The translations under genes were made by a program, and so were the position numbers. From Candidatus Saccharimonadota bacterium (GTDB lineage Bacteria > Patescibacteriota > Gracilibacteria > BD1-5 > UBA2023): 32,000 nt of DNA. Below, in pieces: positions 4,064 through 28,942 of the stretch. The notes under the pieces were generated by a model, which did no database searches, had not been told where the DNA came from, and worked only from the letters and a program-made list of their open reading frames with translations. How positions within the stretch are numbered: the first letter of the stretch is position 1; each line of letters opens with the position of its first letter. The stretch spans positions 180,001 to 212,000 of the forward strand of contig JAXLZO010000001.1 of assembly GCA_046350815.1 (NCBI GenBank), given 5' to 3'.

Positions 4064-5179
4064 TTAATCACAAAATATTTTCTCAAAAAATCCTTTTTCT
4101 TCATCTTTTCAAATTCATCGCTCATGAGCGATCGCTTCGTAGAGTTCCCGTTCTTTTTTGGAAAGTTTCTTTGGGATTTCGACCTGAATATGAAGGTAGA
4201 GATCACCTCGATGATCGCGTCGAGAAATCGATGGAAATCCATCTCACTTGAGTCTAATGACATGATCTGGCTGAGTGCCAGCAGTAATATCAACACTACG
4301 ATCCCCAATTACTGGGATTTTTACACTTTTTTTAATCCCGAGAACCAGCTCTACTGGATGAAGAGGGAGAACAAAATGAATATCATCTTTCTCACGTTGC
4401 ATACCATGAGGCACATCGACAACACTAATATGAATGTAGAGATCACCTCGAGATTTACGCTTCGAATCGATTGATCCTTCGCCTCGCATTTTGAGACTTA
4501 CTCCATCAGAAATTCCTGCGGGAATTTCGACCGCCTGAGTTGTCTTTTTTCGAATGCGTTTTTTGCCATGACACGTACCACACGGATCCGAGATAGTCTC
4601 TCCTGATCCATGACATACGCCACAAACCGAGGCTTGTTCCATGACACCAAATATTGTCCTCACACGTTCACGCACTTGTCCCGATCCATGACAATGGCTA
4701 CATTTTACCGGCTTGGATCCTGATTTTGCCCCAGACCCATCACAAGTTCCGCAGAGATCATATCGCTCATATTTGAGTTCAAATTTTCACCCTTTGTAAC
4801 TATCAGCAAAATCGAGAACGAGTTCAGCTTCTTCATCTTCACCACCATGTGATTGTTCACGGGTACTGCCACCTGTAAAAAATTGCTCAAATATATCACC
4901 AAATCCGCCAAAACCTTGTGAGCTAAATCCTCCTTCAAATCATCCAAAGCCGCCTCATTGACCAGGAGGTGTACCAGTCTGATCATAGTACGCTTTCTTT
5001 TGAGGATCTGAGAGTGTCTCATATGCTGCGCCCACTTCCTTGAAAAGTGCCTCCTTTTCTTTGTCGCCACCAGTTCGATCTGGGTGGAGCTCCATAGCTT
5101 TTTTGCGATATGCTTTCTTGATCTCATCTGCTGTCGCATTTCGATCAACCCCAAGAATGCTGTAATATTCGTATGACAT
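4064..5179 (-). CDS. dnaJ: Molecular chaperone DnaJ, 371 aa
   Basis: The J domain is [31 protein letters not shown]. The G/F region is GQ-G-GGFG-G-FEGGF, with TGA at 4955-4957 and 4940-4942. There are four CxxCxGxG zinc-finger repeats, and RLK-G-DGFP has TGA at 4244-4246. TAA is at 4064-4066. Confidence 0.95.
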
Positions 5180-5213
5180 TTGATTTTTAAAAGTATTTAG
5201 ATACAAATCGTGC

Positions 5214-5924
5214 ATGGACTATACAGAAATCACCGAAAAAATCAAGCACCGAATGTGAATGCGTGCTATTCCAAATAGTCAAGAGCTTGGATTCTTTCAA
5301 CGTACACAGATTGTTACCAAGATTCTCACAAAGTTGACACCTGGTATTGAGTGTATAGCACTTGTTAATAGTACCGCTCTTTGTGCTACTCATCCTGAGA
5401 GCGATATTGATCTCCTCGTCGTAACCAAACCATGACATCTTATGTTGACACGAATCATACTTACACTCCTTCTCAAGTGGCGTGGCGAACTTCGACGATG
5501 AGATAATGATATTAGCAAATTCTGTCTCTCATTCTTCCTCGACACTGGTCATCTCGACATGTCGAAGATAGCACTCGAATGAAGTGATCCTTATCTCGCA
5601 CTCTGGACATCACGAATTGTCCCTGTTGCTATGACCGATCATTTCTATAAGAAATGGAAAACATCAAATCAATGGGTATGAATTCCATTTGAAAATCCAT
5701 TTCCAAAAGCACAAATCATCGAAGAACTATCATGTGTATCAAGGTTGATACGTCCAATCATATGATATATAGACCTTCTCATATACGGAATATACTCGCT
5801 CATAAGAAGAATGACAACGCTCAATAAAACTCCTATCAAAACGCCTTGGGGAATTGTTATCAATCGATGAATACAAAAACTCCATCCTGATGATAAGAGG
5901 ATGGAGTGGAGAAACTATAGATAA
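5214..5924 (+). CDS. Nucleotidyltransferase-domain protein (Pol-beta superfamily), 236 aa
   Basis: ATG at 5214 and TAA at 5922-5924. The NTase signature is [27 protein letters not shown] (G/S...DxD). The frame is open over 237 codons apart from 7 TGA. The specific substrate is unknown. Confidence 0.6.
5875..5906 (-). terminator. Rho-independent terminator of the giant-protein operon
   Basis: The minus strand reads ctccatcct-cttatcatc-aggatggag followed by ttttt, 19 nt after the TAA at 5925-5927. It lies inside the 3' end of the convergent NTase CDS. Confidence 0.7.
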
Positions 5925-8006
5925 TTATTTTGAGTGAGCTGATTGTTGAGCTCATGCTACTCATACAACAGCAAGACCACTAATAATCAACGAAATTAAT
6001 CAAATAGTTTTTGTGAATGGTAATACCTTGATTGCTGCAACTACTACTCCAGCACCAGCGACACCCGTCAATATCTTTTCAACGGTTGTGTCAATACCAA
6101 AAGATGCGAGCGTAGTATTAACAGCACTCATAATACCCGAAGTTATGGTATACGATGTTGTATAACTTGCTTTATTCAAGATCGAGTCCAACATGGCAGC
6201 TGTTTGTGCTACGATAGGATACTTATCAACACTATTCCTAAGATTATAAATATATTGACCAAAATGATCTGGATTTTTTTTCTGAAAGTATGCAAACAAT
6301 TTAAGAGATAGTATCGGCTTTTCTCAGGAACTTAGTGCTCATGCGTTAGGATTACCACCTGTAATCATGTAAATTTCAAATAAATCCTTCATCGTCATCG
6401 TATCAGGTCCAAGAAGATTGAGAAGATCCTGAGTGCACCCGAACTCTCTCGCTATCGAATTTCGAAAAGGATTGAGGAATTTTTCCGGATTAGCCATATC
6501 AACAACAAATTGCTTTTCTCAGGAATTTATATCAGTAACAGTATTGAGAAATTGGGTAACCGTCAGATCTCTTGTTGTCAGGAAGAACATTTTTTGTGTA
6601 AGCGAAGGTGATAATCAACGTGCCTTAAATGACTCAAATCTCTCGTCCATTAATGATCACTTTCCAAGAATAAATTTCCCATCTTGCATTTTCAGATCAA
6701 GAAATAAATCTGATGGAAGATCCGTAATATTATTAATAGATAAGTGTGAGATTTTTTCACTCATTTGCAAGAAATAATTATATCATTTTTTCGTATACAG
6801 AGTTGATATAAGTGAAATAATCTTTATATCTTTCCAGTTAGGATCCATACCGAATGTTTGAGCAAAGTACAACTCATTTTTTTGAAACATCTCTTTAATA
6901 AGTTTACAAGCCGATTGTCGCTTGGATCGGTCCACGTTACTTACTTTTCCGCTTCGTCTCACGAGATCATCAACAGATAATGATTGGATTTGTTTATAGC
7001 TAAGGTTTTGGAGTTCACTAGCAGTTAAAAGTGATACAGCATCTGTTTCAACATCCGTTCGAAAAGCAACTTCATCTTTATTTGTTGTTGCATCTCTCAT
7101 GCCTCAATAAAGAGCTCATAGATAATTGGAGTATATCATGGGATTCGTTCCTTGAATCAGAAATTTTGCAGTAAAGTTTGCCTGTTGCGCCGTGAGTATT
7201 TGTTGAGCCTCAATCTCCTCCTGATGAGTACTGTCTAATGTCTCTGGTTTATTGTCTTCAGTTTTCTTCTCATCATCCTTCTTTCCCGTATACTTCGCGA
7301 GAGCATCTTTGAGATTTCCACCGAAGAGCACAGCAAAAAAGAGTCATATACCCTTGCTAATATCACCTTTTTTGACGAGCTCCCATCCAGCATCCCAAGC
7401 ATCACCGATATCCGAAGACCATTTTTTGATCTTCTCTAGTGGCTTCATAATGCCTTTGACCGCCTCCTCAGCCTTCTTGCCGCCAGATTCAATAGTAGCT
7501 ACAACACCAGTTCCACCTGCAACCGCTACAGCTGCTTGTGCTGTAGTTGGAAGAGATTCAGTCTTAACATCGGGAGTTGTTTTTGGGGTACGTGCTACTA
7601 CATCTTGCTTCAGATCAGCCGCTTTTTGTTGTGTTTCAGCAATAGTCTGTGCATAGATTTGATTACGCAACTCAGAAACAAGTCGATTTGTCTCAGTCAG
7701 AGTCGCATCGTATTTTTTATCACGATCTTCTTTCTGGAGATATTTATTCAACTGAGTGAGAAATGTATCGATCTTCCCTTGAATCTTGGGATCATGTTTG
7801 AGTGCATCATCAGTAAAGGTAGTTCGAAGATCTGCGAGAAGTCATTCGTACGAACTTTTGATATTTACATATGCGGGATACACAAACTTCCCGGCAGGAA
7901 GTTGATGATCAAAATCCTCCCATCGTGCCGTGAGGGTAGATTTGAGTTTCTCAAGAAGTGTGTTTTCTGAAGATAAGGTGCGTTGTGTTTCTATTGAGGG
8001 AGACAT
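5925..8006 (-). CDS. Giant orphan protein C, 693 aa: helix-rich with Gly/Ala hydrophobic segments and a C-terminal TM pair
   Basis: ATG at 8004-8006 and TAA at 5925-5927. Track ORFs 7344..7751, 7116..7331, 6783..7100 and 6000..6299 share one frame; all gaps were checked codon by codon and contain only TGA. There is no signal peptide (MSPSIETQRTLSSEN). The C-terminus is ILTGVAGAGVVVAAIKVLPFTKTI-G-LISLIISGLAVV-G-VA-G-AQQ. Confidence 0.75.
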
Positions 8007-8018
8007 AATATACAAATG

Positions 8019-10886
8019 TTAGTGTGATTGTTGTGGTTTTGCTGCAGCGATGGCCTGTGCTGGAACTTCAAAAAGTGTCATAGAGAGTTTCTCACTCGCA
8101 TAAAGAACAGGAAACCCTATTGCGGCTGTCTTGCCGACAATTTCACCTCACTTAATCATGGTATTTGCAGCCTTGATTGCCTTTGATCACGTAACATAGT
8201 ATTTCATTGACTGACCAACAAATGGGAGAAAACTTACAGCTCATAATCATAAACGTATTGCTGCATCACGATTTGTCACCTTATTGCCAGCAATATCTTC
8301 ACCATATGCAAACATATTAATTGCTTGACCGATATCCCATCCTCCAGCAAGCATATTGCCAAAAATAGGTATAGCCATAGATCCAGCACTCACACCAAGA
8401 TCCAGAGCATACATGTTTGCTTTATGCTTATCTTCTTCTGTTTTAGCATTCAGCATCAGTTTTCCTATCTCATAAGCTCCTACACCCATCATACCAGCAC
8501 CGAGTCGTCCTGCAACTTTATCAGTTGCGGACATCTTTGCATGAAGTTTTTCTACGGACTCGATAGCAGCAGTATTTGCATATGATGTGCCTTTAATCGC
8601 TTTAATGAGATCTCATGGCACACTCTCAATCTGAGCACCATATTTTAAGATAGCTTTATTTTGTACGGTTACCCATGTATTGTACTCTCATACAAGCTGT
8701 GTAATTTTTTTCTTTGCGGTATCAATCTCAGATGGTGTCAACGATCCAGAATCAATCCGAGTCATCTCTGCTTTGATCGCATTGCGTCTCGCCTCAGCCT
8801 CAACACGTACTTTCTCAATAGCAGCAACCGACTCGCTGTATTGTCGCATATTTGCTTTGAGGTGTGCGTCAAGATTATTGATTGCAACAGAAGCTCGGTG
8901 TGCATCATAGGGAACATGATTTACTGCTCATTCTACTTGATCCAAAAGGAACTTTGTTGCAGGATCAGGCTTATTCTGAAGTACCACCATAAGAGCATGG
9001 GCTGATTTTGTTGTCATACCATTTTTTGTGAACCAATCTTCTAGAGTTGATTTCCAATTAGCTGGATGAGTACTGATACGATCTTGTGCTCTTGTAGCAG
9101 TGTCCAGTTGTCACTTTACTCACTTCGCCTTACCCTCGGCAGCTTGAACATCAGCATCAGAAATACCAGTTGCTGCGTCACGAATCCGTTTATTTGCAGT
9201 TCGCTGAGCTTCAATAGCATGTAATAGTCATTCTTTCACAGCTATATCACCCCAAAGATTATGAATAGGATCAGCTGGATTTCCAATTAAACGTCATACG
9301 GTTCATCTTTGTGTCGGAATTTTATTGCGATATTCATCAGTTAATGCAATTCTTGTTGCCTCCGTGCTTTGGATTTTTGCCTCAAGATTAACTAGTGATG
9401 GCGGACCCGCTTCAATATGAGTTTTTCGTGCATCAAATGCTGCCTGAGCTTTATTTCTCTCATCCAAATAGAGTTGAATAACAGCTGGATCCTTTTTCTT
9501 TGGATTTCTTCAAGTTATATAGTTATTTAATTTAAGATCTTCCCCTTGAAATACTCAATCAAGTCTTTTTAGTTCTGGATCACACCCTAAATTCGCAGGA
9601 GTTAGATCTAATAAAACTGAAATAGCTTGTTTACCTCTGGTCGCAGCCTGGTGCTCAATTTCATTTTTCTGATACTCACTACCAACACGGGGATGAGCTG
9701 GATCGCCGATTTCTGCGAGTCGTGTTTGAAGCGCTATCTCAATATCAGCAAGTGGCTTTCCGTGATATTGCGCATCAATACCAGCATTCCTGAGTGCAGT
9801 ATTATAAGCGTCTTTTGCATTCTGATGTTCGGTTTGTGCAGCTACTACTTTTGCATCATCTTCAGCAAGAGTGGTTCACAGCAGATCTGCAGCTCCTTTT
9901 CGATTTTGAAGATCTGCATGATGAGCATCAACTTGTTGTTGATCAAGCGTAAGATCTGCAACCAACTGATTACGATCAGCACTACTCAGTTTTTGACTCA
10001 TTTTAGCTGGATCGATACGAGCAACGCGAGCCAATTCAGATACATGATTATTAAATTCACTCAAAAGAACTCCTCGTTTTACTGGATCAGTTTCATGAAC
10101 AATATCCATCAGCATATTCTTAGTTGATTGAAGTTGATCTTGAAGAGATTTATTCTGAGGTAGTCCACCAATCGTTCGATCTAACTGATCCGTGATACGT
10201 TGTCCAGCTGCTGCTAAATCACGTTCAAACTGAGCCTTATTAGCACCAGTAATGGCAGCAAGTCTTGCTTCTTGTTGTGAATCGACCAATCAATCTCGCC
10301 ACTGTTTTCCATGAGCCCCAAGCCTCTGTGGACCTTGGAATATCCATTTACTTGCAAAACTTGGATCTCCTTTTTTCCACCAACGAACTTTTACGGCTTC
10401 AGCAGGATAATATCCCATAGCCATGAGCTTAAAGACTGCTATGAGTGTATTAGGTGTCTCTGGGAGATCTTCTGGATTCATCACGGCATATCAAGCATTT
10501 GTTGCATCTTCTTGAGTAATACTTCCTGACCCCTGAGCTTCAGCCGTACTCGGGAGAGAATCTCATGAATCTGAAGAGGAAGAAGATGTATCTTGATCTG
10601 CGGCAGGCGTCAAAACCGTGGTCGCAGCTACACTAGCCACGCCTGCTTGCACATCCTGTGCTACGTCACGCCTTCATGATGCAACGTTGAGATCTGCCTG
10701 ATATCGGCGAACCGCAGCCTGTTTTTCGGGGCTCAGTGCCTGAATAAGTCCCTCCTTTTGTTCAGAAGTCAGCAAATCAAAATTTTCTTGGGTAATATCA
10801 CCCGGAAGATCAACAAGAAAGCTAAATTCTGGTGCAAGGTGAGATTTCTCATCATCCGAGAGAACAATGGTTTCAAATGGAGTCAT
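8019..10886 (-). CDS. Giant orphan protein B, 955 aa: long Ala/Gln/Lys/Glu-rich region plus a C-terminal glycine-zipper hydrophobic block
   Basis: ATG at 10884-10886 and TAA at 8019-8021. Track ORFs 10674..10886, 10290..10484, 9876..10289 and 8247..8534 are in one frame, and the full 8535-9875 gap translates without TAA or TAG. The C-terminus contains AGRLGAGMMGVGAYEIG and LDLGVSAGSMAIPIFGNMLAGGWDIG. Confidence 0.75.
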
Positions 10887-10905
10887 AGTATTGATAATTT
10901 AGATA

Positions 10906-12978
10906 TTAAGCGTGTATTTTCTTGAGGAGATCTTTGACTGTCATGGTCTGAAGATCATTCTCGGTAAGGTTGTTTTTCTGAAGCCAACTATTGAGCTTAT
11001 CCATTGGGATACTTGATTTATTCGCTCGCATATCAATCAAACTTCCATTCAATACTGAGGGGACTGAATCTTCTCAGAGAATTACATGACGCAACATCGA
11101 TTTGAGAAGTGCTGAGTCAATATTAGCTGGGGTAGCCGCATAGAGGCTTGCCTCATTAGACCAGAGAGACTTGGACGGATCTCCGAGAAGTAGATCTTTT
11201 GCACGAAGGGTCGAGAGAAGAGCATCGCTCTTAAGATAATTCAAGTGTCCTTGATAACTATCAACGAGCGTTTTTCCATTTTGTGTTAAAAGTACATTTT
11301 TACCTGCAATCTTTTTATCAATCGTTGTCTGATCAATATTAGACGCGCTAAAACGACTCTCAAACCACTGCTGTAATTTATCTCACGTTGCTTCTTGTAA
11401 GGCTTGTGCGGCACCCTCCACTTTTGTGGCAACTTTCTTGGCAGCATCTCATAAACCACTCAAATTGTCACCAATTTTCTCCCAATTATTGATAGCTCAT
11501 AAGCCCAATACAGCAGTTAAGCCCCGTAAAAAACTGAACTTTCCCTCTGCTCATAAATGAAACATCTTGTAGATGGCATAAAAGAGAAATCAACCAATAC
11601 CAAGCATAGCAATGGGATCACCTTTACCAAGACGCATAATATCGCTAAATCATTGAGTAAAACCCTTCCCAGCGAGCGACAAAGAGGATGTAATTTTTCA
11701 TCAGGTTACACCATCTTGTGCAATGGATCAAGTAATGGTTGTATTTGTTTCCTTTGATCACTCTGACGAATGATGTTGAGTACTTGTATTTACATGAGCA
11801 CCGACCGAAGCAAGGAGTCCGGGATTTTTTTCAACAAATGCGCTTACCTGACCAAGATCTTGAAATCCCTTCATAGCTTGATTGAAATTAACTGACTCAA
11901 GCATGCCTGCTGAAGCAAGTAGTGAGGTAATATCAGGAGAATTCTGACCTGCCTTCTTCAGATCAGCTACATGTTCAAGAAAGGTTTTGCTACTCGCCTT
12001 TGGATCAATACCCACAATATTCCCTTGAGCATCTTTTGTGACACCGAGTTCCGTGGCATATTTCTTAAATATAGGTGAACTGTAGAGTAGTCCAGTTTTG
12101 AGTGTATCGATCGAGAGACGTCCGGTATTGACAAGTGTTTGTAATTTTGTCTGAAGCTCTACCACACTCACACCCGGTTTTGGCTGAATCTCCACTTTTC
12201 CATCTCGTATAGTGAGATTGTGTCCAGCTTGACGCAACATATTGAGAATGATAGCACCATGAACACCCTGAAGAGTTGCTTTTGTCTGAGCATCAGGCAC
12301 CAGATTAATAAATTTCTCACTGAGAGTCACTGCTTTATCAAGCGTCTCTGGATTGATTTCTTTGAGGGTTTCCTCGATTTCTTTGACACTTGTATCTTCT
12401 GAAGAAGTGATTCCAGAATTTCCCTTCGTTCCATCGGTAGATCAAATAGCAATCGTCCTTAAATACCCCTTCCCCCTCTCTGCTGAAGCTAAAAACTCAG
12501 GGTTTGAAAGTAAGTCTCCATGCTCTATGGGACGACCGTAATCCACAACTACATTTCCAGCCGCATCCGTACCAGTAAATGTTGTAGTAGGTACAGGAAT
12601 ATTAATTCATCCAGCGGTCTTTGGTTCCCCAACTGAGGCAGTCCGCACGTGTCTTGATTGATATGAACGTGTGAACTCAAAAGCAACATCTGTTGCATCT
12701 TTGACTTCAGGTTTTTGGTTATGTTGAAGAAGTATCAGGTATGCTTTTATATCTTCAATACTATCCTCCAATTCGGGATGCTCTCATTTCAATGAATCCA
12801 ACTGAGCAAATACTGTCTTCATTTTTGATGCGAGATTCCTTGATTCAACATCATTTTTAAGTTGGGCAAGGTTTTGACTTGTAAGACTTCACTGGAGCTC
12901 ACGGAGGGCTTGTACCGTATCTGGTGGAAGAGTAATCGATGATACTTCCTTATCTTTTGGTTTTTCAATTGGTGCCAT
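10906..12978 (-). CDS. Giant orphan protein A, 690 aa, with a central two-helix hydrophobic hairpin
   Basis: ATG at 12976-12978 and TAA at 10906-10908. Every codon was checked and only TGA interrupts the frame; track ORF 11758..12330 is an internal piece. The hairpin is DPIAMLGIG-G-FLFYAIYKMFHL-G-AEGKFSFLRGLTAVLGL-G-AINNW (about 11476-11620). There is no signal peptide. Confidence 0.75.
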
Positions 12979-13131
12979 AGGAAAAATATAATATACAACG
13001 ATATACTCTCATATTTTTCTCATTCACACAAATATTTGCGCTTCAGTTCGCTTGACAGATCAGAGATATAAAGTAATTGCAAGAGTTATCATTTGACAAA
13101 AGCAATGTGAATGAGAGAATGAGGAAAAATT

Positions 13132-13980
13132 ATGAAAATTTCTGCTCCAGTTATTACTATTCTTGTCGGGGTGCTCTGCATAGGTAGTCCACTCTACGCA
13201 ACCGATCCAACGCTCCCTGAAGCAATCGATAATCTCCAATGAGTTGATACCAGTGGGCTGCCAGGAACAACGCTCGTGGAAAAACGAGGACTTATTAGTT
13301 ATATTCTCACTCGACTCTTCTGGTCTCCGAGTGATAGCGGATATACGAGCGATAAATTCGGGCGCATCAAGAGTGAATATCTCGATGTCGGATCAAATAT
13401 TACGATTGGAAGTGTTCCAATGATTAGCAACAGTGGATCACTCACCGGATCAATCATCAGTGTTATCACAAATACTGTTTCACTCAATGGTGATCTTTCA
13501 CTTTCATGAAGCCTCTCAATCACTGGAAGTATCACACCAACAAGCAACGATACCTATGATCTCGGTGACAATTCTCTTCGCTGGAGAGATATCTATGTAC
13601 AACGAAACGCATTCAATGGTTCAGATCGCAGACTCAAGCATGATATTGAGACACTTTCAGGCTCCACTGATATCATACGTCAACTTCGGCCTGTACAATT
13701 TCGATGGAATAATTCTACTCCCTTCGATCCGCAATGATATGGATTCATAGCACAGGAAGTAGAGAGTATACTTCCCGATCTCGTAAAAACATCAAACGAT
13801 ATAATATTTACCAAGCTTCTCAACTACAATGAATTCATACCATTTATTGTTGCCTCGATGCAAGATGTACTACGTCAACTTGAAAATATTATAGCAAAAC
13901 AAGATGAAATCATTCATCGTCAAGAAGAAATTGAGAAACGACTTGATCGACTTGAAAATTCCCTATCATTACAAAAATAA
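13132..13980 (+). CDS. Secreted tail-fibre-like protein with a C-terminal peptidase S74 / intramolecular chaperone autoprocessing domain, 282 aa
   Basis: A GAGG sequence lies 8 nt upstream of the ATG. The signal peptide is MKISAPVITILVGVLCIGSPLYA. The fibre-like motif is YDLGDNSLRWRDIYV. The S74 hallmark follows: NG-SDRRLKHDIETL...IRQLRPVQFRW...-G-YGFIAQEVESILPDLV...LNYNEFIPFIVASMQDVLRQLE, then a coiled-coil tail. It ends in TAA at 13978-13980. Confidence 0.85.
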
Positions 13981-13989
13981 CTTTTTTCT

Positions 13990-14742
13990 ATGAAAAACTC
14001 TCTTGTGCGAATTATTATCAGTCTTATGACTCTCGGACTCCTTGCTAGCTGTACTGCAAAGCCTACCAATACTACCACACCAACTGGAAGTCCAGCAAAT
14101 GAAGCTTTTTCAGGTGTATCTCCAAAAATCCAATCTCTTGAAAAATTTCAATCATGTGTAAAAACAAGTGTGAAGACATGTGGGGAAGAAAGTGCTAAAA
14201 TCCAAGCAAGAGATGCAAATGATCTCTCTTGGTGCAACCTCATTGCTGATGAAAAAGCAAAACAATCATGTCAAACGAGCGTTATCTATAGTCATGCGAT
14301 CACTGCACAAGATGAAAATATTTGTAAGGATCTCGCTGATGATACAATGAAAAGTATGTGCCGATCACAAATCGTCTCAGCAAAAGCAACAAAAGCACAA
14401 GACATAACCCTCTGTGATACGCTCACGACAACCTCAGCATCCGGAGTGGTTGCAGGAGTAATGACTGGTGCAAATATAACAGCAACGGGTAGTAATTCGC
14501 ATGATAACAACGATAGAAATAGTGAGATGTGTCGCATGCGCGTTATTCAATCAATAAATGCTATTCATCCAAATGACAAGGCATGTGAGAAAATGAAAAC
14601 AGAAGAAGGGAAAACCAATTGTCAGAACTTCATGAAAACAATGAAAGAACGAGAAAAGGAGATGAATCAAGATATGCCACCAATGCCACCAATTCCTCCA
14701 ACTCTACCACTACCACTATCAGTCCCAACTCCAAAAAATTAA
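13990..14742 (+). CDS. Cys-repeat lipoprotein with a Pro-rich C-terminal tail, 250 aa
   Basis: The lipobox is LGLLAS-C. Cys-containing modules recur (D...C..L.D....K..C). The tail is PPMPPIPPTLPLPLSVPTP. The gene begins 9 nt after the S74 gene and has no TGA in frame. Confidence 0.8.
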   Translation: MKNSLVRIIISLMTLGLLASCTAKPTNTTTPTGSPANEAFSGVSPKIQSLEKFQSCVKTSVKTCGEESAKIQARDANDLSWCNLIADEKAKQSCQTSVIYSHAITAQDENICKDLADDTMKSMCRSQIVSAKATKAQDITLCDTLTTTSASGVVAGVMTGANITATGSNSHDNNDRNSEMCRMRVIQSINAIHPNDKACEKMKTEEGKTNCQNFMKTMKEREKEMNQDMPPMPPIPPTLPLPLSVPTPKN

Positions 14743-17087: not shown

Positions 17088-18776
17088 TTATGCTTGTTCT
17101 TGTCTGCGAACATACCAGTATCCACCGATAAGTGCAATCAGAAGCATTGCGGCCATAAGTCCTGGACCTGTTTGCACCTTTGTTGCCATACCAACATTTG
17201 GAGAAAGAGTTTTCCCATCACTACAAATAGCCTTGATGGCAAAATCTTCATATTTAATAGCACCGGATGCTATATAGATCTTATACATTGGCTCTTTTGT
17301 GTCAGCAACAAATTCGAGTTCCCCACTTCATGTCCTCTTATATACCTTGTATCCTTTGGAATTTTCAACACTCTTCCAGCTAATAATAGATACTCATTTT
17401 TCGCTTACTACTTTGATATCACCAACATCCCCCACCACACACGCCTGAGGGCCTGCAGCATTGAGTGTCATCGCAACTTCTTGCACATTAGACATGAGAC
17501 TAGAGATTTCAGCTCCCTCTTTATCAAGACCAGATACTTTTACAAAATAGGTTGCTGGGGTGATACCATCGATATACCAAGTATAGAGCCCACCGGATCC
17601 TATCTTCGATCGATCATAGGTAATACGCTCATTCGTGAGTGCATCCTTGCCTGTTCCATAGAGAATCTTGAATTTTGAGAGTTCTGCGGGAGGATTCGTC
17701 ACATTAAATTGAAAATTGAGTTTTGATCCTTGTTGTTCGATCTTGATATTCTCGAATTTTGTCTCTATTTTTGGTAATGTACAACCAATACAACCAGGAA
17801 TACCATCTTTAACTGATAAAGTTGCCGCTTTTGCAATCGTATTTGATTTACCAAGATCACTCTTTATGGTCACAGCTATATCATAACTTCCTGTTGCGGA
17901 TGGAGCAACGAGTTTACCTTCATAGAATCATTCTTTTGTCTCCTTAAAATTCTCTACGAAGTCACCAAGCATCACTCGGACCTCTGAAAGCTTTGGTTGT
18001 GCCTCAAACGAAACTTTCAATAGTCATTTTGGCCATATAGTTAAACCACCTTCAACATTAAAATTCTTGATCAACCCAACATCCTCTCACTTCTTCACAA
18101 CAATTTTCTGACTCTCACCAATAACCTTATCATTACCATCAAGAACTTTTACCTGAAGAACATTTTCAGATTGAGTAATATTTTTGAGAGATGCTATAAA
18201 TTGCCCCTGTTCATCACTTGTAACAGTTGTTAGAAGTGCACTACTGAGCCATATCTGTACTTTTGAATTCTTTTTTGTCGCACCAACAACCTCAATGGAA
18301 TCAGAAGAAAGTATCGTTCCACTCTCTGGAGAGATAATTGATACCTTTTCCGAAAGCGTTGATGAATTCTTTGGGGTTCACGAGCTGGGAGCAACATCTA
18401 TAATATAGGTTCCGTTGAGAGAGGTATTCACGAGATCACCAATATTCACCAACATTTTCCCTTCTTTTGTAAAAGACAATCCCTTCGAAAAAGTTTTTTT
18501 ACCAGCATCACCACTGGTAAATGTATATCCATCCTGTCCATATGGCACCGTAGCTTTCGAATCTTTATCCACGAAAATGAAGATGCTACCATCATAATTC
18601 TTATCGATGGAACCATCTTTTGCTACTGCTTTAACCGTAATATCAATCGCTTCTCCTACAGTGGTAGTCTTGACCGCTTCAATTTCAAAATGATCAGCAC
18701 TATCTGCAAAAGCAAATGGCGTAAATGGAGTACTCACAAGGGAAATGAGACTCAAGAGGGCAAGTATTCTTTTCAT
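17088..18776 (-). CDS. Cell-surface protein with Ig/FN3-like domains, an N-terminal signal peptide and a C-terminal anchor, 562 aa
   Basis: The signal is MKRILALLSLISLVSTPFTPFAFA. Track ORFs 18378..18776, 17394..17873 and 17088..17288 are in one frame and are joined only by TGA (all gaps checked). An FN3-like stretch reads VSIISWKSVENSKGYKVYKRT. The C-terminus is KVQTGPG-LMAAMLLIALIGGYWYV-RRQEQA. Confidence 0.8.
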
Positions 18777-18860
18777 AAAAACAAGAGATTTTATAGGGAT
18801 TGTATTCTCGAGAGAGAAAAAGAAAAATAGGATTTCAAAAAAACGATTGACGATGAGTTA

Positions 18861-23967: not shown

Positions 23968-24354
23968 ATGTCTTTTTTTCAACATCCTCAGAAGATCTTT
24001 CTTCTTATGGTAGGCCTATTCTCTATTTTAAGTTCATCCGCCTTTGCATCACTATGGCCGACACAAAATCCAACAACAGAATCATCTGGTGGGATAGCAG
24101 GGATATATTTTACCAATATGTTCGGGAATATTGAAGCTGGAACAGGGAAAATTTGTACCAATAGTTGAGTAATTATAGGATTTGATGCGAATGGTGGCAT
24201 CAAATGTCTAGAAAATATCACTGACAATTCCTTCATTTCAAATCCAACAACAAGTATTACTTATTCTGGGGATCAGACATGACCAACTGGTGAAATATCA
24301 GGTGGGGCATTCAAGCAGTATTTTACCAAGGGTCTAAACCAGTTGACAGGATAA
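23968..24354 (+). pseudogene. 5' fragment (signal peptide plus first repeats) of a giant surface protein, truncated by an IS insertion
   Basis: The signal is MSFFQHPQKIFLLMVGLFSILSSSAFA. The frame runs into the IS left end (..QYFT/KGLNQLTG) and stops at the TAA at 24352-24354, inside the element. Confidence 0.75.
24330..24344. repeat. IS left terminal inverted repeat
   Basis: gggtctaaaccagtt is the exact reverse complement of 25068-25082. Confidence 0.9.
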
Positions 24355-24376
24355 ATTATCCCATAAACTTGGCTCT

Positions 24377-25069
24377 ATGATCAGTAAAACTACCTATAGG
24401 AAAAAATCACGAATTTGAGATGCAAAAATAAGAGAAATTGTGAAATATTTTTCTCTGGATTTTACTTCAGATAAAACAGCGGTATTAACAGGTCTCAATC
24501 CAAAAACAACACAGGATTGGTATAGATATATCAGAAAGGCGATAGCCTTTCTCTGTGAGAGAGAAAAGAATGAAATATGGACTGGAAATGTTGAGATAGA
24601 TGAGAGTTACTTCTGACCAACAAGAGTCCGATGAAAGAGAGGAAGGTGAGCTGGTATGAAGACAATAGTCTTTGGTTTACTCAAAAGAAACTGAAAAGTA
24701 TATACTGAGATAGTTCCTGATGTAAAAGCAAGGACTCTCGTGCCAATCATTCGATGAAAACTTCGTATAGAAGAGTCTGAGATTAACAGTGATGGATGGT
24801 GAGCTTATGATGGGCTTGTAGATATTGGATATGAGAAACACTACCGTGTTCATCACGGAGCAAATGAATTTGCAAGATGAACTCAACACATTAATTGAAT
24901 AGAGTCATTTTGGAGTTATACCAAAAGAAGACTCTCTCAATTCAATGGAATCAAGAAAGTCTACTTCTACTATTTTTTGAAAGAATCTGAATTCAGATAT
25001 AATTGTCGTATTCAATGAAAAGATATTTATAAGGAAGTGCTAAAGTTACTTCGTCAATATAACCCGTAA
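24377..25069 (+). CDS. IS1595-family (ISXO2-like DDE) transposase, 230 aa
   Basis: The translation contains VEIDESYF-G-PTRVR-G-KRGR-G-AGMKTIVFGLLKRN-G-KVYTEIVPD...INSDGW-G-AYDGL...HHGANEFAR-G-TQHIN-G-IESFWSYTKRRL...FLKESEFRYNCR. It has 10 in-frame TGA codons, several at family-conserved Gly positions. The TAA overlaps the right inverted repeat. Confidence 0.9.
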
Positions 25070-25082
25070 CTGGTTTAGACCC
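25068..25082. repeat. IS right terminal inverted repeat
   Basis: aactggtttagaccc. Confidence 0.9.
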
Positions 25083-25084
25083 TT

Positions 25085-28000
25085 ACCAATATGTTCGGGA
25101 ATATTGAAACTGGAACAGGGAAAATTTGTACCAATAGCGGTGCAATCGTAGGTTTTACTCATGATGGCACCCCACAATGTGGAAAAGTAATACGAAATAT
25201 GGGGACTGCTTCTTGAATAGCATGAATAATTCCAGCATGAATTTCGACTCCAAATGTTGTAATGCAAGCAATGGGTATTCCAAATAGTAGGATTGCAGGA
25301 TTTTTTGGAAATATATTGAATCATTCATGCGATCCAAACTATGCGCTCGTTGGATTTACTTATACTGGCGCTTTAATCTGTAAAAATATTGATGATCTTA
25401 TATGATTTAAAGCTTGAGAGCTAAATATATCAAGTGATAATAACCAAGTTATATCTGGATCAGGCATAACGATAAGCTGGATAAGCCAGAATACAAAAAA
25501 CTGTAAATTACAAAATCAGCCAGTTAGTCCAAATGGGACTCAATACTTCATAGTTTCAGAAAAAACAGAATTCAAAATACAATGCTTCGATGAAAAAAAT
25601 ATATCTATCGAAAAACAAATTACTGTAGATATTATCACCGTACCAACACCTAATATAACTTTTCAGATTAAAGATTGAACAGATACAAGGTATGTATGAA
25701 GTACAATTGATCTGAGCTGGAATGTATCTGATGCTGATACGTGCTTTGCATCCAATGTAGGAAATAGACAGATGGCGAGCGAAAATAGTTGGTATGGGGC
25801 AAAGGGTTTTTCATGAACTACGACAGTATCTGTATATGAGAATGATATTTACTATTTAAAATGTAAAAAAACTACATCCTGAATAGAGAAAGAATCGCAA
25901 AAATATATCGCATTAAATACACTCAATCCTATACTATCATTCACATCTGATATCAACGATAGTATAGAAATATACAAAACTCTAACACTCAGTTGGAATA
26001 GTAATGAGTACATACCATCAGAAATAGTACAATCCGGTATGAATACCGCAAATCAAGTAGAAACACGCAATGTTCTTCCATGTACAATTTCCTGACCTGG
26101 AATAAGCTGAAATAAAAATGAATTCTGACACAATATTACGTGAAAGAAAGTGAGCGGAAGCGGTAGCATACTCGTGCAAGCAACGGTTGCGAATGATTTA
26201 GGCTATAATATCAGTTGCTTCTTAAGTAATGGATCCTCGGTACAGCGATCTGTCTGACCAATAAAAGTAACTCCTGCACCAAGAAATACACGTATAGACT
26301 ATTTTTATGATGCAAATGGGTATCAACGACCATATACTCAAGATTGAATGAATCGCATATACGCATCAGGGGATGAGGTACATCTTAATTGGGGAGCATA
26401 CTATCACGACGGATGTGAAATACTTGGGAAAACAAATATATCATACGATAATTCATATAAATTCACTATTTGACCAAACGATACATCCAGAACATATACA
26501 TTACGCTGTCATGACGCAGGAACAAAAAAATTCGTAGAAAAAGAGCTATCTATTTTTATACCATCACCAACTATTGCAACAAATCCAACACCAGAGATCG
26601 AGTATCTTTGGGCGACTTACGATAATACCCGAGTGGAAGCGCTATCATCTTTTGAAAAAACAACAAACCCTTACATCAATATAAGTTGGTCTGCAAAAAA
26701 CATTGAACACTGTGAAGCATCATGGGATCCTGTATATTGATCAAAGAATATACAAGCAGGAACATACAAAACAATGACATATACCCTACAAGATAAGTTA
26801 TCAAATAGTCAGAACAGTAAAAAATATAGCATTACTTGTTATGGGAATAGTGGAACATCCATTCAAAAATCAATCGATCTCAATTGGTATGATCAAACAA
26901 TACCAAAAATAACCCTTATTGGCCCAACAAGTATCACAAAAAATAATACATGAACAGTACTATGGTCGACGCAAAATGTCACTAATTGTGTGTGACTGTG
27001 AGATGAAAGTACGTGGATTGGAGATAAATCACTGAGTGGAAGCTTTGTAACATCAAAACTTTCTCAAACCACATCATATATCCTTCGTTGCAAAAAAGGG
27101 GATGGATCTATCATTGAAGAAAGTATAAAAATAGAGGTTGTATGATCATCAATTTCTCCATGATGAACACCAGCAATAAAAACATTTTGGGCAACTTTTG
27201 ATAATGAATCATACTATCATTTCAATGATCCAACAAAGAAAATATCATACAAAAATCCGTGATTTATTACGCTTTCATACCAAGCTGAAAATATAGAAAG
27301 TTGTTCAACCTCATGGAATCCGATCAATGGCGCCAAGCAAACAAATGCTGAAAATGGCATCATATCAAGTCAAACACAGGCATATACTTTGGGAGATGGT
27401 GCAAAAGAATATAGTATTTCTTGTCAGACAAAAAATGGGATAATTACAGAAAATCTTACGATATATCTAGAGCCATCATCATATTTAACCTTCGTAGGAA
27501 CATATATTGATAGCAATAATCAATACAGCCATGTTGAAATTCTTTCTGGTCAAACAGTAGCGCTCAATTGGAATACAACATCTGTAGACTTATGTGCGGC
27601 TTCTGAGGATTGGAGTGGTACAAAAGAATCGAGTGGATCATATACGACACCAGTACTTACATCCAACAAGAGCTATACACTTACTTGTAGTGGAAAAGAT
27701 GGGATTCAAAGAATTGAAACAGTAACAGTAAGTGTTATTACTTCAAAAAAACCCACTATTCTACTTGGAATCAAAAATGGTGAAGCTTATAAAAGAGCGT
27801 GAGATTCGGTAACTATAAGCTGGAATGTATCGAATGCCGATCGATGTGAAAGATCGTGATGGTGGGCAACTTGAGGCAACTTAGGCTCTAACGACTCATG
27901 GATGCAAACAGAAGGTTTTATTGGTGATATTTCAATACGTTCTCCATTTGCTACTACCTATGGATTAACTTGCTGGAAAGGAAACGAATACACCACGGAG

Positions 28001-28942
28001 TATATATCAATCACTATCAAGCCACATGTTTCTGTAGGTCTTACAGCTACCTACTTCACAGGTTTTGATGGAATACCAAAAACACAAATTAATTGGAATG
28101 CGGAAGATATATCGGGAATGAGTTGGGATACTAAAAGTGAAGTAATTTGTCATGGACAGGACGGTGATAATTCATGAAATTGGAATAGTTTACAGAAAGC
28201 AAGCTGAAGTTATATTATTCCAAAATTACTTACAACAGAAACTGTATACACAATGTATTGTAGTATTGATAATCAAACAACCTCTAATTCATCTTACTTT
28301 CAAGGAGTAAGCAAGTCCATAACGGTAGACCCTCAGTCAATACCAAAAGCATCATTGAGTATTAATATATCAAACGCAAGCTCTAATATGAAAAATGGAG
28401 AATATTGGGTATACAATAATAATGGTATAGTAAACTGGACTGCGAAAAATGTTTCAAACTGTAAAATATATAATATTAGTAATAATACGATGGTGGAAAA
28501 GGTAGATAACACATCGGATAATAACCATGAGAATGTTGGGCAATTTGTTATTCCTACAACACAATGAATATCAGATTACTATTTAATCTGTAGAGACCTA
28601 GTAGGAAATACTTTTGATGATTGAACAAAACATATTATCGTGGATACCGAAGTGCCAACTATCAAGTCTTATTCTGTATGCCCAGAACATCAACATGGCT
28701 CAAATTGAGTATGTTCATACCCTCTATTCTGTTTTAAAAGTAGTAATGCATTTGATATATTCGATATATTTGCATCAGATTGAAAAAAAAGACGTATTTA
28801 TTGGAACTGATGCTGACATTCTGAATACAGTGCTTGATATAGCAACAATGAACTAGTTGGTATAGTTTGAGAAAAAATTCCTTGTCCAGAAAACATAAGA
28901 GCACTGAGTAATGAACTTTGTAACTTCGACAGTCTCCACTAA
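25085..28942 (+). pseudogene. 3' portion (1,285 codons) of the IS-disrupted giant surface protein; about 11 tandem Ig-like Cys-containing modules
   Basis: The frame was checked line by line from 25085 and contains only TGA. It includes track ORFs 27389..27802, 27902..28177 and 28253..28567. A recurring module reads ..(I/V)x(I/L)SW(N/S)xxNxxxC...G(S/T)...Y.L.C...G... The 3' end (TAA at 28940-28942) is less certain because a second open frame overlaps 28614-28856. Confidence 0.75.

Follow-up and report, generated by a model that had tools for sequence, protein, structure and literature searches.

What function would call for three large proteins that carry no export signal, are encoded back to back, and diverge deeply between sister genomes whose neighboring genes are conserved? 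A preliminary description of the locus had proposed a membrane-inserting or cell-contact machine. The window analysed here (the whole stretch of DNA, 32,000 nucleotides) gives only short ORFs throughout when translated with table 11 and long ones with table 25 or 4. Because TGA sits at conserved Gly positions in LigA, in AlaRS ('gVRRIKAV') and in the G-rich linker of DnaJ, code 25 is correct. ORF calling under this code returned the three genes at the coordinates previously claimed, with gaps of 19 nt (A-B) and 12 nt (B-C):

10906..12978, minus strand: gene A, 690 aa, without signal peptide; N-terminal helical region, conserved alpha/beta core, Gly-rich hydrophobic hairpin, C-terminal helical domain
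8019..10886, minus strand: gene B, 955 aa, Ala-rich, with many helix-forming residues and without signal peptide
5925..8006, minus strand: gene C, 693 aa, without signal peptide

The products are identical to the NCBI MAG proteins U0518_00940/00935/00930, all annotated as 'hypothetical'. Their N-termini are hydrophilic and, as had been noted, have neither a Sec nor a lipobox signal; clear signals are found in neighbors (the S74 protein, a lipoprotein and the 17088-18857 protein). A, B and C form a single transcription unit, hereafter the cassette, which lies between two conserved elements:

12979..13131, minus strand: divergent promoter/5' leader of the cassette, common to the plus-strand S74 gene and conserved up to codon 2-3 of A
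5875..5907, minus strand: intrinsic terminator with a 10-bp stem, a 9-nt loop and U5; downstream breakpoint of the variable unit

The leader was delimited by aligning the window's own cassette (W) with L010, L015 and L003 (L001–L017 are other loci; P0003 and P0012, below, are individual homologues), the blastn flank matches stopping at window 12973/12955 and resuming at 5914 on the terminator side. The terminator already proposed 3' of the trio is real: its stem pairs 5907-5898 with 5888-5879 ahead of U5 at 5879-5875, its folding energy is -14.8 kcal/mol (z = -4.9, none of the shuffled sequences folding equally well), and it is almost invariant across 7 loci. In a correction to the earlier picture, it lies within the 3'-terminal part of a plus-strand ORF (5214-5924) convergent with the cassette. 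The variable DNA stops ~15 nt past the stop codon of C and is directly followed by the conserved terminator and a conserved convergent gene.

The three proteins had been called orphans, which does not hold at the level of the lineage: the A family (640-910 aa) comprises 98 clusters at 50% identity among 1.84 billion representatives. The trio is conserved beyond its source genome: at least 12 further contigs carry it, each of them TGA-recoded. Those that are taxonomically labelled all belong to the Gracilibacteria, to which the cassette is restricted. Its order, an A-like protein followed by one of 800-1000 aa and one of 600-750 aa, is preserved across differing genomic contexts (L001, L003/4, L005, L006 and L009-L017). 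In four sister genomes the cassette occupies the same LigA-S74-[cassette]-DnaJ slot, and this LigA-DnaJ slot contains a cassette in every genome examined for it. The S74 gene, which encodes a signal peptide and had been considered as a possible part of the unit, lies outside it, since its divergence resembles that of the flanks and cassettes at other genomic sites lack it. A, B and C are real genes under constraint, given that their ORFs are intact in every locus, that dN/dS is low in B and in C 150-245, and that one domain of C is modelled confidently by AF2.

Hypervariability is limited to the cassette and stops at its conserved flanks. Between sister genomes, protein identity is 0.81-0.85 for LigA, 0.87-0.89 for DnaJ and 0.83-0.85 for S74, against 0.23-0.39 for A, 0.32-0.52 for C and either 0.25 (L015) or 0.83 (L010) for B, this one shared B allele being the exception to the 23-52% identity of the cassette. 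The nucleotide breakpoints fall at 12973 (the start codon of A) and 5914 (the terminator), and between them anchor islands alone can be aligned. Gene content also varies, A-B-C or A-X-Y-C, two other genes (X and Y) standing in some genomes in place of the entire B. These comparisons show that whole modules have been replaced between the conserved promoter/leader and terminator: the N-terminus and core of A; a block made of the A C-terminus, B and the C N-terminus; and the C-terminal domain of C. A few strongly constrained anchors, the core of A and aa 150-245 of C, are kept amid the replacement. Purifying selection acts on each allele (dN/dS 0.14-0.17 in B), and the shared B block, with a dS of 0.55 against 0.8-2.0 in the flanks, indicates recombinational exchange. 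Such a pattern of swaps is the one to expect from a system of cell contact or conflict, not from housekeeping genes. The hypervariability is also compatible with a phage-exposed or defence function.

An anti-phage or abortive-infection system would use the variable domains as sensors of phage components and, through the Gly-rich hydrophobic segments, make the producer's own membrane permeable. A hypervariable locus between conserved genes, encoding signal-less proteins with membrane-active-looking segments, agrees with this proposal, as do the Fic and AbiEii genes that adjoin the L006 cassette. Nonetheless, PADLOC-DB 2.0 gave no match for 8 family members (A, B, C and five homologues; a lone E = 0.034 is noise), and the proteins show no domain of the nuclease, NTPase, TIR, SIR2 or cyclase type. 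Moreover, the three-part architecture is held across deep divergence, as opposed to the presence/absence turnover usual in defence islands, and the LigA-DnaJ slot is occupied in all genomes examined. We regard a defence role as distinctly unlikely.

In protein C, whose AF2 model has a mean pLDDT of 65, four regions can be delimited:

7593..7970, minus strand: C N-terminal helical bundle, aa 13-138, AF2 pLDDT 65-84
7272..7559, minus strand: C near-invariant segment, aa 150-245, running from LPTTA through a hydrophobic stretch and a K-rich amphipathic helix to GIGLFFAVLFGG (alignment A2)
6087..7265, minus strand: C polymorphic domain, aa 248-640, all-helical, pLDDT 70-91 (alignment A2)
5934..6086, minus strand: C C-terminal hydrophobic hairpin, aa 641-691, Kyte-Doolittle up to 2.5, Hessa-type sum ~0 kcal/mol for 668-686

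For the N-terminal bundle, Foldseek returned only a generic four-helix-bundle likeness. The near-invariant segment is 82-84% identical at the nucleotide level to L003, L015 and L016, within unalignable surroundings; with a dN/dS of 0.04-0.09 (dS being saturated), it doubles as a recombination anchor. A sortase substrate was considered on account of the invariant LPTTA (152-156), the hydrophobic stretch 155-172 and KK 176-177, and was rejected: the motif is internal, unlike the C-terminal LPXTG, hydrophobic helix and basic tail of a sorting signal, 520 aa follow it, and the protein has no signal peptide. Among homologues aa 1-245 are conserved and the C-terminal domains fall into at least 3 unrelated types, the switch between the two parts occurring sharply, right after ...LKDALAKYTGK (nucleotide breakpoint at about window 7267-7273). 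The polymorphic domain of W has no nucleotide similarity to L010, L001, L003 or L015 and no structural match in PDB or BFVD at E < 1e-3, and which C-terminal type a locus has is independent of its A and B alleles.

Protein A has two regions of interest:

11839..12393, minus strand: A core, aa 196-380, best-conserved part of the A family
11488..11622, minus strand: A Gly-rich hydrophobic helix-loop-helix, aa 453-497, PIAMLGIGGFLFYAIYKMF...FSFLRGLTAVLGLGAIN, marginal on a Hessa-type scan

Residues invariant in the core (A-family alignment A1) include E200, N209, P210, H240, G241, R249, H253, N254, P266-G269, D349 and D374. Window 12400-11561, which includes the core, is 74% identical in nucleotides to L003, the remainder of A being unalignable. 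The AF2 model has a mean pLDDT of 48.5, with 60-89 in the core, and A itself matches nothing in Pfam, PDB sequences or Foldseek.

In the homologue P0012, the helix-loop-helix region gave a weak, sub-threshold match to Pfam TrbC. The cassette might encode divergent parts or substrates of a type IV secretion system, with the A hairpin as a pilin module like VirB2/TrbC or with the trio in place of a VirB6-type channel not found in Gracilibacteria. P0012 is named 'TrbC/VirB2 family protein' by NCBI, with TrbC matching its residues 397-439 at E = 0.0097, and the report that Patescibacteria lack VirB6 homologues and vary greatly in their VirB2-like genes (PMC12102498) is in keeping with this idea. 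The match nevertheless reaches 16.5 bits against a cut-off of 27.9 and spans one helix, and none was seen in A or the other scanned A-family members at E <= 0.01. A-family proteins of 640-910 aa are devoid of a pilin signal peptide, no virB4, virD4 or virB3 lies near any cassette, and VirB6 is polytopic, whereas cassette proteins have one hairpin at most. This derivation strikes us as very improbable.

Protein B, without a Pfam or PDB-sequence match of its own, contains two segments that could be delimited by comparison:

10347..10886, minus strand: B N-terminal module, aa 1-180, 65% identical to P0003 (phmmer)
8202..8414, minus strand: B C-terminal Gly-rich hydrophobic region with a PT-TG-like loop, aa 825-895, ...IPIFGNMLAGGWDIG...YGEDIAGNKVTNRDAAIRLGLG...

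Beyond the shared N-terminal module, the remaining ~650 aa of P0003 are unrelated to B, and the variable part of B is the middle of the protein, not its C-terminal tip. Despite its richness in helix-forming residues, B is not a long coiled coil, the heptad signal being significant at 701-770 only. Toward the C-terminus, D/P/D/G-x-D/G/R/G columns are invariant across B-type proteins (alignment A4), which share a conserved Gly/Asp/Arg loop with invariant G76, D78, G81 and R92, preceded by P54 and D65 (numbering of the first row, the fragment of the window's B, or W_B, in which the loop reads 'YGEDIAGNKVTNRDAAIRLGLG'). A loop of conserved G, D and R residues within a span of ~15 characterizes PT-TG (PF14449), which occurs as a module in polymorphic toxins of the T6SS, T7SS and CDI types (PMC13483458). 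The B-position homologue L005_B scored 20.5 bits against PF14449 as a whole protein and 24.1 bits (E = 3.6e-5) as an excised 134-aa fragment, the gathering cut-off being 23.5 bits. A fragment of L009_B scored 12.9 bits (E = 0.12), and W_B, whole or in fragments, gave no match at E <= 10. With hhalign, W_B 779-883 aligned to the PT-TG-matching L005_B 667-753 at E = 5.8e-4 but with a probability of only 29%. A putative PT-TG (pre-toxin) region near the C-terminus of B is the sole link of the trio to a known family, a borderline one that runs, for W_B, through one homologue.

Hydrophobic hairpins had been claimed for all three proteins. The claim stands for C 668-686 (~0 kcal/mol on a crude Hessa-type scale), which is predicted to form the only hairpin of TM grade in the trio; A 453-497 and B ~790-895 are Gly/Ala-rich, only marginally hydrophobic, and too polar for autonomous or classical TM helices. 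The trio might stay in the producer, hairpin-anchored on the cytoplasmic side of its membrane, as a lineage-specific envelope, attachment-organelle or cytoskeleton-like structure whose variability would reflect co-evolution with phages or other variable components of the envelope. The tail-anchor-like TM hairpin at the C-terminus of C, the lack of signal peptides and of linked secretion genes, and the large hydrophilic helical domains that flank short hydrophobic hairpins all suit such a cytoplasmic topology. Against it, allele replacement, or the exchange of B for X+Y, is rare for internal structural proteins when flanks are 81-89% identical, and a PT-TG-like motif is typical of delivered toxins. 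We judge this scaffold unlikely, if less so than a defence role.

Searches of Pfam, NCBIfam, PHROGs, PADLOC, PDB sequences and Foldseek yielded no explanatory match for A, B or C. The earlier statement that catalytic signatures are lacking holds for domains (none in Pfam, PHROGs, NCBIfam or PADLOC) and needs amending for motifs: B has a Walker A-fitting string, GGEIVGKT (913-920), within its Gly-rich tail, most likely a chance match since no P-loop domain was detected (no Pfam P-loop family matched). No homology to a housekeeping complex emerged. Neither Pfam nor NCBIfam matched a trafficking domain (LXG, WXG, PAAR, Rhs, CdiA or signal peptide), the flanks of ~12 loci contain no secretion gene, including any secretion ATPase, and no co-varying immunity-like gene lies downstream of C, where conserved DNA starts ~15 nt past the stop. 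These absences speak against contact or effector proteins, as does the variation of B in its middle, unlike classical polymorphic toxins.

Phage ancestry was considered as well, the trio being tape-measure or minor-tail proteins of a prophage remnant, as long helical proteins with hydrophobic Gly-rich segments next to a gene with an S74 (tail-fibre chaperone) domain could suggest. The best BFVD Foldseek matches bear tape-measure or minor-tail names; they are unspecific, with TM scores of ~0.1 and E >= 1.4e-3. PHROGs gave nothing significant, and A and C had no relatives in pattern scans covering the 2.9 million viral contigs of IMG/VR. The surroundings are not those of a tape-measure or tail gene: capsid, portal, terminase and tail genes are absent from every locus, the flanks encode LigA, DnaJ, RecF and AlaRS, and the S74 gene encodes a signal peptide, shows divergence like that of these flanks and is missing from cassettes at other sites. 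A prophage remnant is effectively refuted.

The proposal of a membrane-inserting or cell-contact machine therefore survives in part: none of the contrary findings named with it turned up, and variability, purifying selection and the PT-TG-like motif favor it, while the weak hydrophobicity of most hairpins does not. Our tentative working hypothesis, to which we assign a probability of roughly 0.35, is that the cassette is a recombination-shuffled, Sec-independent and membrane-active contact or effector module. A, B and C would be made in the cytoplasm without Sec signals and would act jointly at a membrane through Gly-rich amphipathic or hydrophobic helices and the C-terminal hairpin of C. The PT-TG-like loop of B would be of the kind that adjoins delivery and toxin modules in polymorphic toxins, and the cassette would be a polymorphic module for cell contact or effector action in a bacterium that lives as an episymbiont or predator. 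Its variable domains may face a variable outside partner, the envelope or membrane of a host or competitor, with diversity sustained by recombination at the anchors and by frequency-dependent selection. Candidate means of export are self-insertion and the type IV secretion system of the lineage; such systems are widespread in Patescibacteria and essential for the epibiotic lifestyle of one cultivated Saccharimonadia strain (PMC12102498), which makes them one conceivable Sec-independent route for the cassette proteins.

A more specific version, which we hold to be rather doubtful, is a novel contact system specific to the code-25 lineage, in which three Sec-independent proteins would assemble by way of their Gly-rich helices into a structure that penetrates or bridges membranes at the episymbiont-host interface. 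The swappable modules (the N-terminus/core of A, B or X+Y, and the C-terminal domain of C) would then set host range or strain identity. If true, this would be a modular 'host-range cassette' at a constant site of expression, lacking the immunity genes and secretion ATPases by which known polymorphic toxin systems are defined.

The ways in which Gracilibacteria, Absconditabacteria and other CPR bacteria recognize their hosts, attach to them and drain them are poorly understood, and almost no lineage-specific effectors are known. The cassette offers a concrete, testable candidate, with three constrained protein families that have no known relatives, one of them with a confidently predicted helical domain lacking a PDB match, and with modules swapped inside a frame of conserved expression signals, which in population-genetic terms is the mark of an interaction interface. 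The near-invariant segment of C and the A core are exact metagenome markers for the cassette, and allele types could be matched against host identity. The poorly understood PT-TG motif is tentatively extended to CPR bacteria, and the conserved promoter and terminator slot is a possible natural expression site, if genetics prove feasible in these organisms.

Among known systems, phage tape-measure proteins resemble the trio in length, helix richness and Gly-rich hydrophobic stretches, but there is no homology, phage context or viral-scan relative, and the cassette encodes three different proteins rather than one. With TrbC/VirB2 pilins (PF04956), A shares a helix-loop-helix that is rich in Gly and whose loop is short and basic; membership of that family calls for at least 27.9 bits in a small protein with a signal peptide, two TM helices and a T4SS neighbourhood, whereas the cassette protein is 7-9x as long as a pilin, with neither signal peptide nor T4SS neighbors. 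The comparison with secretion-system translocators (here those of T3SS), pore-forming toxins (here colicins) and Inc proteins, already drawn in the preliminary description, is apt in that all are signal-less helical proteins with one moderately hydrophobic hairpin, compatible with a soluble-to-membrane switch. The resemblance is one of layout only, there being no Pfam, PDB-sequence or Foldseek homology and no T3SS.

Proteus Ids and Myxococcus TraA are allelic self-recognition or identity loci. The cassette differs in having no sequence or domain similarity to them, no linked delivery system and no co-variation between modules, the C-terminal types of C being independent of the A and B alleles. 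It is like them in its fixed chromosomal locus, its deeply divergent alleles under purifying selection, its variable regions in putatively membrane-associated proteins and the reshuffling of diversity by recombination. Finally, polymorphic toxin loci with PT-TG (LXG/WXG-T7SS, T6SS and CDI; PF14449) differ from the cassette, which has no adjacent co-varying immunity gene, trafficking domain, linked secretion apparatus or known toxin domain, consists of three large co-operonic proteins instead of one toxin, and varies centrally in B, the match of W_B being borderline and indirect. Like those loci, the cassette lacks a Sec signal and exchanges modules by recombination between close relatives, C joins a conserved N-terminal part to a sharply bounded, swappable C-terminal domain, and the B-position proteins carry a PT-TG-like G-x-D...R loop between Gly-rich hydrophobic helices.

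With translation table 11, only short ORFs are obtained from the window, whereas long genes emerge once TGA is taken as sense. TGA encodes conserved glycines at a LigA site, in the AlaRS motif gVRRIKAV, and in the Gly-rich linker of DnaJ, and the code is therefore 25 (TGA = Gly) and not 4. Under this code, the coordinates that the preliminary description had assigned to the three genes of the cassette are reproduced exactly, including the spacers of 19 nt (A-B) and 12 nt (B-C):

10906-12978, minus strand: gene A, 690 aa
8019-10886, minus strand: gene B, 955 aa
5925-8006, minus strand: gene C, 693 aa

The products are identical to U0518_00940/35/30, "hypothetical proteins" of a Candidatus Gracilibacteria MAG on a 1.28-Mb contig, and in-frame TGA codons are abundant in the cassette genes of all retrieved contigs. 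The open frame that continues 5' of the ATG of A (to 13869) is noncoding; it runs across the conserved intergenic region and into the S74 gene of the plus strand. Because stops are limited to TAA and TAG, spurious long antisense ORFs occur throughout the window, such as:

4064-5200, plus strand: spurious antisense ORF opposite DnaJ
13969-14703, minus strand: spurious antisense ORF opposite the lipoprotein gene

In related contigs, public gene calls sometimes translate TGA as Trp (as in the homologous database protein P0003) or lie on the wrong strand.

A, B, and C form a single operon whose expression signals are conserved: all loci keep the promoter/leader (12979-13131) and a terminator block of ∼55 nt. 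The hairpin followed by U5 that had been proposed as terminator is real: its 10-bp stem (5907-5898/5888-5879) closes a loop of 9 nt, and its stability is -14.8 kcal/mol (z = -4.9); a consensus terminator scanner missed it solely on account of the loop, which is longer than 8 nt. A, B, and C have no Shine-Dalgarno motif upstream; the region contains no tandem repeats, and no tRNAs or Rfam families were found there or in the whole 32 kb. The hairpin and ∼25 nt beyond it (5859-5910) are near-invariant in seven loci, the window and the homologous L001, L003, L004, L010, L015, and L016, the surrounding flank being just 76-80% identical, and a single stem change (A to G) retains pairing as G-U. The same block codes for the final residues of a convergent plus-strand ORF (5214-5924), which has no Pfam match. 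The block may serve as a terminator in both directions, as a recombination boundary, or in both roles.

The proteins had been labeled orphans, a term that no longer applies, as a lineage-restricted ordered trio recurs in other contigs; the synteny envisaged for relatives is found, in the same order, in every retrievable contig. The cassette lies on one strand, tightly packed, with an A-like protein (637-913 aa) followed by a protein of 800-1000 aa and one of 600-750 aa. Pairwise and profile comparisons define the families A, B-I (the window's B), B-II, X, Y, and C, and the loci fall into two architectures:

Three-gene cassette: L001, L005, L006, L009, L010, L011, L012/13, L014, L015, L017
Four-gene cassette A-X-Y-C: L003/L004, L016

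Since the flanking genes vary between lineages (LigA/S74...DnaJ; S1/PG-binding...SSB; ABC/Fic...AbiEii; EF-G), what is conserved is the cassette itself, and the S74 gene lies outside that unit. Word-indexed searches returned 2-10 homolog clusters per protein, and an exhaustive A-family profile search gave 98 clusters (50% identity), of which 26 lie below 1e-30 and many are fragments. Pattern scans retrieved two loci in GTDB species representatives and two in metagenome contigs, an underestimate of the distribution, given that exact motifs were required. All named records are Gracilibacteria. A second small module (L011 9940-12577; L018) encodes a 300-aa protein and then a protein of ∼540 aa with the family-A hairpin and downstream region (L011_E versus L011_A 468-589, E = 7e-41); the C-terminal module of A is thus also used outside the trio.

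The cassette occupies the same chromosomal position as in the window in four other loci (L003/L004, L010, L015), in the order LigA, lipoprotein, S74, cassette, convergent gene, DnaJ.

Protein identity to the window's products at the same chromosomal position
LigA (flank): 0.81-0.85
DnaJ (flank): 0.87-0.89
S74 (flank): 0.83-0.85
A: 0.23-0.39
B: 0.25 (L015) or 0.83 (L010)
C: 0.32-0.52

In L003 and L016, an unrelated X+Y pair takes the place of B. Nucleotide alignments of the flanks end at 12973/12955, the start codon of A, and restart at 5914, just beyond the stop codon of C and within the terminator. Modular allele replacement is confined to the cassette. Versus L010 and L001, there is one alignable block (11407-7267, 81-83% nucleotide identity) spanning A aa ∼524-690, the whole of B, and C aa 1-247; versus L003, the core of A (12400-11561, 74%) and C aa 150-245 (7559-7273, 83%) can be aligned; versus L015, the alignable part is limited to C aa ∼157-253. 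As these islands span or split genes, the module boundaries ignore gene boundaries. Which C-terminal type a given C carries is independent of the A and B alleles: A and B are shared by L001 and L010, which differ in the C terminus of C, and the L001 type of C is common to the X+Y carriers L003 and L016.

The cassette genes show no decay: between allelic partners, B has a dN/dS of 0.14-0.17, and the value is 0.04-0.09 for C 150-245 and 0.05-0.12 for the flanks. For the shared B block, dS is 0.55 against 0.8-2.0 in the flanks, a lower value that indicates more recent recombinational exchange. Recent gene conversion was considered as sole cause of the near-invariant segment of C and rejected, since 30-50% of the identical residues use different codons and dS is ∼1. 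Hypervariability is specific to the cassette, since housekeeping-like evolution extends even to the secreted S74 protein and the lipoprotein beside it; the tempo of these two genes is unrelated to that of the neighboring cassette. The locus behaves like an interaction or conflict locus.

The two adjacent genes are syntenic and their products ∼83-85% identical in sister genomes:

13132-13980, plus strand: secreted 282-aa protein with a C-terminal Peptidase_S74 domain (tail-fiber/endosialidase chaperone), E = 1e-16
13981-14742, plus strand: Cys-rich lipoprotein, next after the S74 gene

The S74 gene is a case of a self-cleaving chaperone domain of phage type in cellular service. Farther along, the window carries a mobile element:

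24328-25084: IS1595-family insertion sequence with 17-nt perfect terminal inverted repeats (24328-24344 / 25068-25084)

It encodes a 230-aa DDE transposase (Pfam DDE_Tnp_IS1595, E = 5e-27) in whose gene TGA occurs in frame 11 times. The 5' coding segment 'TNMFGNIE[AT]GTGKICTNSG' is present twice, in a direct repeat of 74 nt with 89% identity (24110-24183 and 25083-25156), which explains the N-terminal motif common to a short signal-peptide ORF (∼23968-24354) and the 1287-aa surface-protein ORF (25079-28942). The insertion sequence may have separated the giant gene from its signal peptide, or the two copies may have recombined.

A, B, and C gave nothing above noise against Pfam, PHROGs, NCBIfam, and PADLOC, nor did their homologs against Pfam and PADLOC, except for a PT-TG match in L005_B, the B-position protein of locus L005. 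Likewise, 27 diverse A-family members had no match in Pfam, and the X, Y, and B-II proteins gave nothing above noise there. An abortive-infection or defense module is a rival reading that, in view of the PADLOC result, we regard as distinctly unlikely. Profiles of A, C, and the C terminus of B, as well as B alone, retrieved only helical-bundle noise from PDB sequences; Foldseek found no match with the model of A and no PDB or BFVD match at E < 1e-3 with that of C. The BFVD list for C was led by "tape measure/minor tail" proteins with TM scores of ∼0.1, names that reflect long helical proteins in general and not homology. We reject a prophage or tape-measure remnant as extremely improbable, given that there is no phage context, no PHROG match, and no relative of A or C in IMG/VR pattern scans. 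Among the six families, hhalign detected only a weak link between B-I and B-II, and together with pairwise comparisons it gave no evidence for X or Y as a diverged form of B or C, nor for paralogy among A, B, and C. Targeted term searches of papers on secretion and proteomics in Gracilibacteria and Patescibacteria (PMC11452946, PMC12102498, PMC8406219) yielded no description of the A-B-C trio. For the A, B, and C families, as for the alternatives X and Y, there are no characterized relatives by sequence or predicted fold.

As the preliminary description had stated, A, B, and C all lack an N-terminal export signal; such signals are present in the neighboring S74 protein, lipoprotein, and 17088-18857 protein. 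The shared N-terminal (M-x-P/S...E-T) and Lys-rich C-terminal ends were considered as export signals and are too loose to count as evidence. Three further claims called for correction. Hydrophobic hairpins had been proposed, and on a crude Hessa-type scale only the last helix of C (668-686) reaches the grade of an autonomous transmembrane segment, whereas the Gly/Ala-rich hairpin of A (453-497) and C-terminal segments of B are of marginal hydrophobicity; the proteins combine Gly-rich hydrophobic segments with one transmembrane-grade C-terminal hairpin. Catalytic signatures had been reported absent, but B contains a Walker-A-like string, GGEIVGKT, at 913-920, although no P-loop domain. Of the long helical stretches, heptad periodicity in B is limited to 701-770. 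The three proteins are largely helical, A and C by AF2 models and B by composition only. The model of A (9-sequence alignment) is poor (pLDDT 48.5), the core 210-380 alone reaching 60-89; that of C (11 sequences) is better (pLDDT 65), with a helical bundle at the N terminus (13-138) and, at 270-600, a domain made up entirely of helices (pLDDT 70-91). A scaffold in the producer's own membrane, or an attachment structure, would suit such signal-less proteins with hydrophobic segments and is a reading we consider unlikely.

After an invariant LPTTA at C aa 152-156 (window 7541-7553) come a hydrophobic stretch of 17 residues and then KK, to aa 177. In its three parts the segment resembles a sortase sorting signal, but it differs in being internal to a protein with no signal peptide; it could be a putative processing site or N-out anchor. 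Several A homologs (L003, L006, P0005-P0008, P0010, P0011), but not the window's A, carry an extra C-terminal β-rich extension (∼70 aa; ...V.V.Y....MYI....LK) reminiscent of SH3b-type wall-binding domains, with no Pfam match. If this extension is real, the C terminus of A would be extracellular.

The B-position proteins have in common a C-terminal region in which Gly-rich hydrophobic helices surround a conserved loop, with D...(I/V)P...(W/Y)D...G-x-D-x-x-G...R...G as the invariant columns of their alignment. L005_B matches the Pfam family PT-TG (pre-toxin TG, PF14449) at E = 4.6e-4 as a whole protein and at 24.1 bits (cut-off 23.5; E = 3.6e-5) as a fragment, and L009_B scores 12.9 bits (E = 0.12); the window's B has no direct match. 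Aligned by hhalign, residues 779-883 of the window's B and the PT-TG region of L005_B (E = 5.8e-4, probability 29%) place 'GEDIAGNKVTNRDAAIRLGLGA' over 'GTDLNGRPLKGLDRFERAAWGT'. A tblastn search of plasmids with the PT-TG-like fragment gave no match. According to a 2026 survey (PMC13483458), PT-TG is a little-understood module that occurs in polymorphic toxins of the T6SS, T7SS, and CDI types, and its most conserved feature is a Gly/Asp/Arg loop. This loop matches the invariant columns of the B-position proteins. The link between B and PT-TG is suggestive, not established.

The most economical reading, to which we give a probability of about 0.35, is a polymorphic contact or effector cassette of an episymbiotic or predatory lineage. 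In such a cassette, the variable domains would face a variable external partner and the proteins would act at a membrane, the producer's own or the target's; B would bear the pre-toxin-type loop, and recombination at conserved anchors would keep up diversity. Type IV secretion systems (T4SS) are widespread in Patescibacteria, and one cultivated Saccharimonadia strain has been shown to depend on its T4SS for epibiotic life (PMC12102498). No T4SS is linked to the cassette, however, and that its products are T4SS parts or substrates seems very unlikely to us. The NCBI name "TrbC/VirB2 family" on the homolog P0012 reflects a subthreshold single-helix match (16.5 bits versus 27.9) and was rejected. 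The analogy with polymorphic toxins is weakened by the lack of a downstream immunity gene, a trafficking domain, and a toxin domain; with function inferred only from anatomy and evolutionary pattern, we rate it as a locus outside known systems.
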